Made by a program: the position numbers and the translations under genes | DNA from: a virus | Direction: 5' to 3' (one strand) | DNA: 64,000 nt | IMG/VR virus record: IMGVR_UViG_3300046777_002658 | Span: 132,878 to 196,877 of that record | The notes under the pieces: generated by a model | The model's input: the letters and a program-made list of their open reading frames with translations, nothing else | Database searches by the model: none | What the model was told of the DNA's origin: nothing | Shown: positions 10,913-11,296 of the stretch, in pieces | Layout of the letters: every line of letters starts with the position of its first letter | Position numbering within the stretch: position 1 is the stretch's first letter

Positions 10913-11296
10913 TGATTAGTTGGTCGTGGGTAAAGAGCCTTAATTGTCTGGAACAACTTTAGAGCATCTAGCACCACAACGTAGTTGGAAACAACAAGCG
11001 TGAAGGTTTAAAAAGATAGATGATTTAGTCAATCAGCAGCCGAGGTGCTAAACTATAAATATGGATGCTTGGCCGAGCGGTTTAGGCAACGACCTCATAA
11101 GTCGTGGGGAGACCCAAGAAAAGTTCAACTCTTTTAGCATCCACTTATAGCACGTACCGGGTTCAACGATCAGTCTCAAGACGTAGGGTGTAAGGACACT
11201 CGAAACAGGCTCCCTCATAATTGAGGATGATATGATCTGACCGTCTAGTGAAAGCTAGAGAGAGTAGTCGGAACCGGGCTACTCGTAACACAAGTG
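10913..11296 (+). ncRNA. Group I intron 4 in motif C, containing a tRNA
   Basis: P1 CACGAU / GUCGUG wobble at U10912; P/Q-like AAUUGUCUGGAAC and AAUCAGCAGCCGAG; P7 GAUCA 11168-11172 / UGAUC 11233-11237; terminal G 11296; splice gives VHD|ELNC. Confidence 0.92.
11063..11143 (+). tRNA. tRNA with CAU anticodon (Met or Ile2) and long variable arm, nested in intron 4
   Basis: Acceptor GGATGCT/AGCATCC; D arm GCC-GAGCGGTTTA-GGC; anticodon arm ACGAC-CTCATAA-GTCGT; 13-nt variable arm; T arm AAAAG-TTCAACT-CTTTT; discriminator A; no encoded CCA. Confidence 0.87.

Follow-up and report, generated by a model that had tools for sequence, protein, structure and literature searches.

Phage group I introns are, to our knowledge, known to carry endonuclease genes or nothing, and a complete tRNA gene lying inside such an intron, at the active site of a DNA polymerase gene, raises the question of what this tRNA is and whether it is matured from the intron that holds it. 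We addressed this question in the final 64 kb of a virus record of 196,877 bp (the window hereafter, meaning the whole stretch of DNA analysed); the record is estimated to be 94% complete. The HIP1 octamer was seen 34 times against 1.1 times expected, an excess that points to a cyanobacterial host, and the HIP1 sites together with the variable hairpin of the tRNA (see below) suggest a Crinalium-like host lineage. A comparison of four Crinalium genomes with window positions 1-60000 returned ordinary gene-level similarities and no CRISPR spacer match. A 29-nt match of 97% identity in G054 was rejected as a spacer because it is the end of an intein in dnaB.

The fourth intron of a split polymerase gene

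The family A DNA polymerase (PolA) of this phage is encoded by two ORFs. The C-terminal one, which begins at position 5057, is broken up by an intein and four group I introns (5162-5798, 7553-9327, 9398-10822 and 10913-11296). Removal of the four introns yields a single stop-free frame that reads VHD/ELN at the junction of intron 4, and an intron-less homolog (P0001; PF00476) matches the joined product at every junction, including Val-His-Asp/Glu-Leu-Asn of motif C. The parts of intron 4 and its flanks, all on the plus strand, are as follows.

10823-10912, +: upstream exon of 30 codons, ending in Val-His-Asp (joined frame, homolog P0001)
10913-11296, +: group IA intron of 384 nt, the fourth in the C-terminal polA ORF (intron 4), which separates Asp from Glu in motif C; orthologs at the same site in L001, L002, L006 and L378
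10907-10928, +: P1, formed by exon 10907-10912 with the guide 10923-10928, U-G at the splice site (sequence)
10935-11038, +: P3 5' strand, P4 (10945-10951/11033-11038) and an extended P5 domain (alignments, RF00028)
11168-11237, +: 3' part of the catalytic core, with P7 (11168-11172/11233-11237), P7.1, P7.2, the P3 3' strand and P8 (orthologs, RF00028)
11244-11296, +: P9 with a GAAA loop, P9.1 and the terminal G (RF00028, orthologs)
11297-11548, +: last polA exon, starting with Glu-Leu-Asn (joined frame)

We confirmed the group I intron that a preliminary description had placed at the polymerase active site: a U-G pair closes P1, the intron ends in G and its excision restores the VHD/ELN frame. 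Against RF00028, intron 4 scored 19.2 bits (E 0.012), under the gathering threshold of 50 bits, while the ortholog in L006 scored 29.5 bits (E 2e-5); the weak score of intron 4 is explained by insertions in P5, L6 and P7.1/P7.2 that are penalised by the model. The same alignment puts P3, P4, P6, P7, P8 and P9 at their expected places and accommodates a 119-nt insert between the Q and R elements, which is where the tRNA had been proposed to lie. Comparison of the five orthologous introns showed that P3, P7, P7.1, P7.2 and P8 vary in sequence while their pairing is kept, and compensatory changes were also found in P5 and P5a when the window was aligned with L001. Since P7.1 and P7.2 lie between P7 and P3, and both covary, the intron can be assigned from its sequence to subgroup IA (perhaps IA2-like). 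The G-binding G-C pair of P7 is intact, and a possible P10 may form between 10915-10921 and 11298-11305. The window copy has an extra bulged U in the 5' strand of P4 (position 10947) that is absent from the four orthologs and may be tolerated, damaging or an assembly error. Intron 4 contains no ORF and hence encodes no homing endonuclease, which the orthologs in L002 and L378 do. From these features we infer that intron 4 self-splices and thereby restores motif C of PolA.

Some features of the surrounding gene were noted in passing. The break between the two polA ORFs (4892-5056) looks as if the gene had been divided naturally in two; stand-alone proteins of about 300 aa that start at this break (P0001-P0011) are the closest homologs, and in L002 polA is split at the same point, with a small ORF between the halves. 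The C-terminal end of intein 2 (6045-7352) is Gln-Asp, not His-Asn.

Identity of the intron-borne tRNA

The 81-nt cloverleaf noticed earlier within the intron proved to be recognised as a tRNA by ARAGORN and by Rfam (RF00005, 50.8 bits, E 8e-9).

11063-11143, +: tRNA assigned to tRNA-Ile2, anticodon CAU, A73, 3-bp variable hairpin with a GNRA loop, at the tip of P6 (ARAGORN, Rfam, cyanobacterial comparison)

CCA is not encoded in the phage tRNA, and likewise in the host gene. ARAGORN labelled the gene as Met. We instead identify it, by sequence comparison, as tRNA-Ile2, which would read AUA once C34 has been modified to lysidine by TilS. Searching with the D arm and anticodon loop of the phage tRNA retrieves one conserved cyanobacterial chromosomal gene, which one complete genome encodes in addition to separate initiator and elongator Met genes. 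The class of this gene was assigned by elimination in the complete cyanobacterial genome and by the published 3-70 rule, under which Ile2 is marked by A3 or G3 with U70 or C70 (PMC1635315). The phage tRNA carries A3-U70 and is identical to members of the Ile2 class at 54-61 of 81 positions (61 for the Crinalium tRNA-Ile2), compared to approximately 40 of 81 for the initiator and elongator Met genes; class identity and A3-U70 together argue for tRNA-Ile2. Its D arm, anticodon loop and T loop are the same as those of free-standing cyanophage and cyanobacterial tRNA-Ile2. That the gene encodes a Met tRNA after all, as its label says, is highly improbable. The CAU anticodon would fit, and C4-G69 and C5-G68, the determinants for E. 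coli TilS, are missing; however, cyanobacterial Ile2 tRNAs also do without these two pairs, the determinants are not universal (PMC1635315), and the identity to the Met classes is far lower than that to the Ile2 class.

The variable region, 12 nt with a GNRA hairpin, was found in 10 of 401 genomes of the order to which Crinalium belongs, including all four Crinalium genomes. Such a long variable hairpin in the tRNA-Ile2 of Crinalium-like cyanobacteria (L039, 4602-4682; L149-L158) is unusual for an Ile tRNA. In annotation, tRNA callers give this gene the wrong label, Met, and the tRNA can serve as a clue to the host lineage. A Plastid-ycf2 Rfam match was rejected as a separate element, as it is the antisense of the tRNA-Ile2 class.

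The L6 loop as a cargo site

Introns at the same polA site differ in what their L6 loop contains: the tRNA in the window and in L001, a LAGLIDADG gene in L002 and L378, and nothing in L006, with corresponding distances from Q to P7 of 127 nt (both tRNA carriers), 583 and 614 nt (L002 and L378, respectively) and 40 nt. L6 of intron 4 thus appears to be an interchangeable cargo slot, filled here by a tRNA. The tRNA in L001 is identical at 80 of 81 positions, within the same intron, and the single change keeps the GNRA loop. Among 141 distinct introns sharing the P5 motif, L001 was the sole further holder of a tRNA, and the distance between Q and R was at most 41 nt in 87 of the 91 introns in which it was measurable. 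The mostly short Q-R distances and the few carriers indicate that the tRNA is a derived and rarely found occupant of a loop already known to carry cargo. A search of metagenome contigs with the exact tRNA pattern gave no match, and none of the other tRNAs of related phages is situated in an intron.

Other observations concern the orthologs and their family. The near-invariant 29-nt P5 motif recurs throughout an extensive family of group I introns from phages and metagenomes, located in many different host genes (L215-L374). In L001, the P5 region of the orthologous intron contains an ORF of 87-92 aa without a Pfam match (2674-2952, minus strand), so that the cargo of this intron comprises a protein as well as a tRNA. 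Inside the P5 region, the L006 intron contains an antisense LAGLIDADG-like ORF (5166-5756; motifs recognised by eye), and the L6 LAGLIDADG gene of L002 (9267-9930) starts inside the ribozyme core and is frameshifted between its two motifs.

Selection on the tRNA and its origin

The 20 differences between the phage tRNA and the Crinalium gene are far from randomly placed: 18 belong to two-sided compensatory replacements within the acceptor, anticodon and T stems, the other two being in the variable loop, a pattern matched by none of 200000 random placements, while the D, anticodon and T loops are unchanged. In an alignment of nine sequences (A7), all 207 cells pair, with no broken pair in 23. 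Full pairing and compensatory stem changes indicate that the tRNA has been shaped by structural selection and is no decaying fragment, although the compensatory changes may predate its capture into the intron. A role of the tRNA as an attachment site was rejected, because compensatory changes set its acceptor and T stems apart from those of the host gene.

The gene in the intron appears to be of cyanobacterial (host) origin. Nine other phage contigs, one of them with an intron-less member of this polA family, have a free-standing tRNA-Ile2 gene, in many cases next to tRNA-Arg(UCU). In one relative with an intron-less polA (L388), a permuted tmRNA (2984-3306) adjoins free-standing tRNA-Ile2 and tRNA-Trp genes. 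Outside the window, an anticodon-less tRNA-like element lies between tRNA-Asp and tRNA-Pro in a tRNA cluster (G000, 11975-12204), and similar degenerate tRNAs were seen in G408.

Conservation between the two carriers has to be read against their overall divergence. The window and L001 differ by 46% at four-fold sites (flanking exons and neighbouring ORF), and their introns are 79% identical in P4-P5 and 96% identical in P6-P9, compared to 75-90% for the other introns. Identity of the tRNA did not differ from that of the rest of the intron 3' half (Fisher p 0.43). Because the 3' half is more alike than the other introns, a recent exchange of this half between both carriers could explain the conservation. 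As for codon use, AUA occurs 20.5 times per 1000 codons in the phage and 11.1 times in Crinalium (1.85 times), and AGA, the most enriched phage codon (3.3 times Crinalium), is also matched by a phage tRNA. However, relatives that do not carry the intron-borne tRNA use AUA nearly as much (37-40% of Ile codons), so that codon demand fits but does not discriminate.

An alternative explanation is that a free-standing phage tRNA-Ile2 recombined into L6 and was never matured, its conservation resulting from the recent transfer of the 3' half. The shared 96% identity of tRNA and 3' half is as this explanation would have it, as are the presence of only two carriers among the 141 related introns and an AUA use that does not separate carriers from non-carriers. 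We nevertheless regard an inert passenger as unlikely, given the absence of any broken pair, a sole difference between window and L001 that keeps the GNRA loop, and a clean insertion on a dedicated 6-bp arm that is kept in both phages. In addition, no CAU tRNA other than 11063-11143 was found in the phage genome, which is 94% complete.

The tRNA might also be made but selected for a purpose other than decoding, as a nuclease-resistant substitute against a host defence that targets tRNAs, or the cloverleaf might act in place as a decoy or protein dock. The host and phage tRNAs have different pairs at 30-40 and 31-39, beside the anticodon loop, and T5 tRNA-Lys is protected from AriB by an altered position 39 (PMC12409363); the equally high AUA use of non-carriers would also be compatible with such a role. 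Yet three stems are affected by the changes, which is also seen in other phage copies, and we find both an anti-defence function and a role as decoy or dock quite improbable.

Proposed maturation of the tRNA

Both sides of the P6 arm would serve as the flanks of a tRNA precursor.

11039-11062, +: 5' arm of P6/P6a/P6b, corresponding to the tRNA 5' leader (folding)
11144-11162, +: 3' arm of P6b/P6a/P6, corresponding to the tRNA 3' trailer (folding)

Two helices had been drawn for this arm in the preliminary description; the arm is present, but both helices cannot form in full, as they share bases 11148-11150. The best arm fold combines 11044-11048/11154-11158 with 11053-11058/11145-11150 (-40.6 kcal/mol, compared to -34.8 kcal/mol for the earlier register). 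In the predicted fold, the cloverleaf sits at the tip of P6; U(-1) pairs with A73, and the arm includes a 3-by-1 internal loop and a leader-trailer clamp of 6 bp. The cloverleaf is predicted to fold locally with high probability, its T stem is A/U-rich, and leader positions -5 to -10 are paired with the trailer (unpaired probability <0.07). On the host side, Crinalium has an RNase P RNA, and a PF01171 (TilS-family) gene is present in four Crinalium genomes; no TilS-family gene was found in the phage genome (94% complete).

We therefore propose, as a reading with the balance of probability slightly on its side, that the intron self-splices and that its L6 cargo, tRNA-Ile2, is matured from the excised intron by host enzymes and reads AUA. 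The intron would splice first, its excised form being the pre-tRNA; host RNase P would cut before 11063, 3' nucleases would trim after A73 (11143), CCA would then be added, and host TilS would turn C34 into lysidine, so that the tRNA would read AUA. The intron that splits the PolA active site would thus probably double as a tRNA precursor. Splicing and processing, as well as their order, the charging with Ile and a possible benefit, are what we infer; release of the tRNA from the intron is well supported indirectly, by the intact and selected cloverleaf, its placement in the tolerant L6 and the presence of the host enzymes. The pairing of leader with trailer, the A/U-rich T stem and the extra U in P4 of the window copy speak against this proposal.

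Processing could instead come first, with RNase P and 3' nucleases excising the tRNA from the unspliced precursor and a two-piece ribozyme, held together by P6, P3 and P7, still splicing. Leader-trailer pairing should slow RNase P and 3' trimming, and in the predicted fold leader positions -5 to -10 are engaged in exactly this pairing. The local folding of the cloverleaf and the stability of the residual arm of the split halves (-13.6 kcal/mol) would nevertheless allow it, and eight group I introns, including those of T4 td and Anabaena, have been engineered as P6-region splits, of which the T4 and Anabaena forms splice efficiently (PMC11879131). From the orthologs with an empty loop or a LAGLIDADG gene it is evident that the intron can do without a tRNA. 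Cleavage ahead of splicing is feasible, but with 5' leader and 3' trailer clamped together it is less likely than release after splicing, and we consider it distinctly unlikely. If it did occur, it would yield the same tRNA, and host tRNA-processing enzymes would become part of polA mRNA maturation.

The preliminary description had also expected tRNA supply to be coupled to polymerase mRNA maturation by either route. This expectation is weakened by a promoter-like motif upstream of intron 4 and downstream of most of polA.

9216-9227, +: promoter-like 12-mer, possible internal transcription start (18 exact genome copies; putative function)

The 12-mer occurs in 18 exact copies in this genome and in 12 in G406, on a single strand and mostly just before gene starts. 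A transcript from 9216 would hold intron 4 without the upstream polymerase exons, and tRNA output could be uncoupled from full polA mRNA. Scans for sigma-70 promoters and terminators gave nothing above chance. In G406, a near match to the 12-mer precedes the 3' half of intron 2. Introns 2 (7553-9327) and 3 (9398-10822) hold multi-gene, non-endonuclease cargo in L8; the division into paired halves that the preliminary description ascribed to them is conjectural. The intron 2 cargo of L001 is far longer (about 4 kb) and consists of different genes, indicating that the loops of introns 2 and 3 exchange gene blocks.

A broader extension, which we put forward with considerable doubt, is that phage group I introns have a dedicated role in carrying functional tRNAs and that the leader-trailer clamp makes splicing and tRNA release interdependent, with host tRNA processing gating or reporting the expression of an essential polymerase. 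If such interdependence were true, the tRNA would be freed only after exon ligation, or RNase P would make a natural two-piece ribozyme.

Comparison with known systems

Similar to phage group IA introns with an endonuclease ORF in L6, such as T4 td, intron 4 belongs to the ribozyme class with P7.1 and P7.2 and uses the same cargo loop, L6, which in T4 td houses I-TevI (PMC3073962). Unlike in td, its cargo is a non-coding tRNA gene that confers no mobility and must be cut out, not translated. The presence of several introns in one family A polymerase gene is shared with SPO1, Bastille and the Bastillevirinae, whose introns hold an endonuclease ORF or nothing and for which tRNA cargo is unmentioned in the main text of the report (PMC11878797). 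A literature search, mostly outside subscription journals, revealed no published account of a phage group I intron with a tRNA inside it. In a study of Ophiostomatales mitochondria, tRNA genes are annotated inside introns of protein-coding genes (atp6-173, cox1-1281), as in intron 4; these intron-encoded tRNAs are organellar and are presented as predictions only, in passages that give neither their place in the ribozyme nor their processing, and they are the nearest published case that we found (PMC7902536).

Maturation of a tRNA from an excised ribozyme, if true, would give prokaryotes a counterpart to the small RNAs hosted by introns, and an ORF-less intron would then benefit its host genome, which bears on why introns persist in essential phage genes after endonuclease loss. 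The single-site series of empty, LAGLIDADG and tRNA-bearing introns, with an RNA of 384 nt in the latter case, is a natural set amenable to direct in vitro testing. Compared to free-standing cyanophage and cyanobacterial tRNA-Ile2 genes, the copy in intron 4 lies inside a ribozyme, and its leader and trailer form an intron helix. In cyanobacterial tRNA-Leu UAA, a group I intron lies inside a tRNA gene; intron 4 combines the same two components with the nesting reversed.
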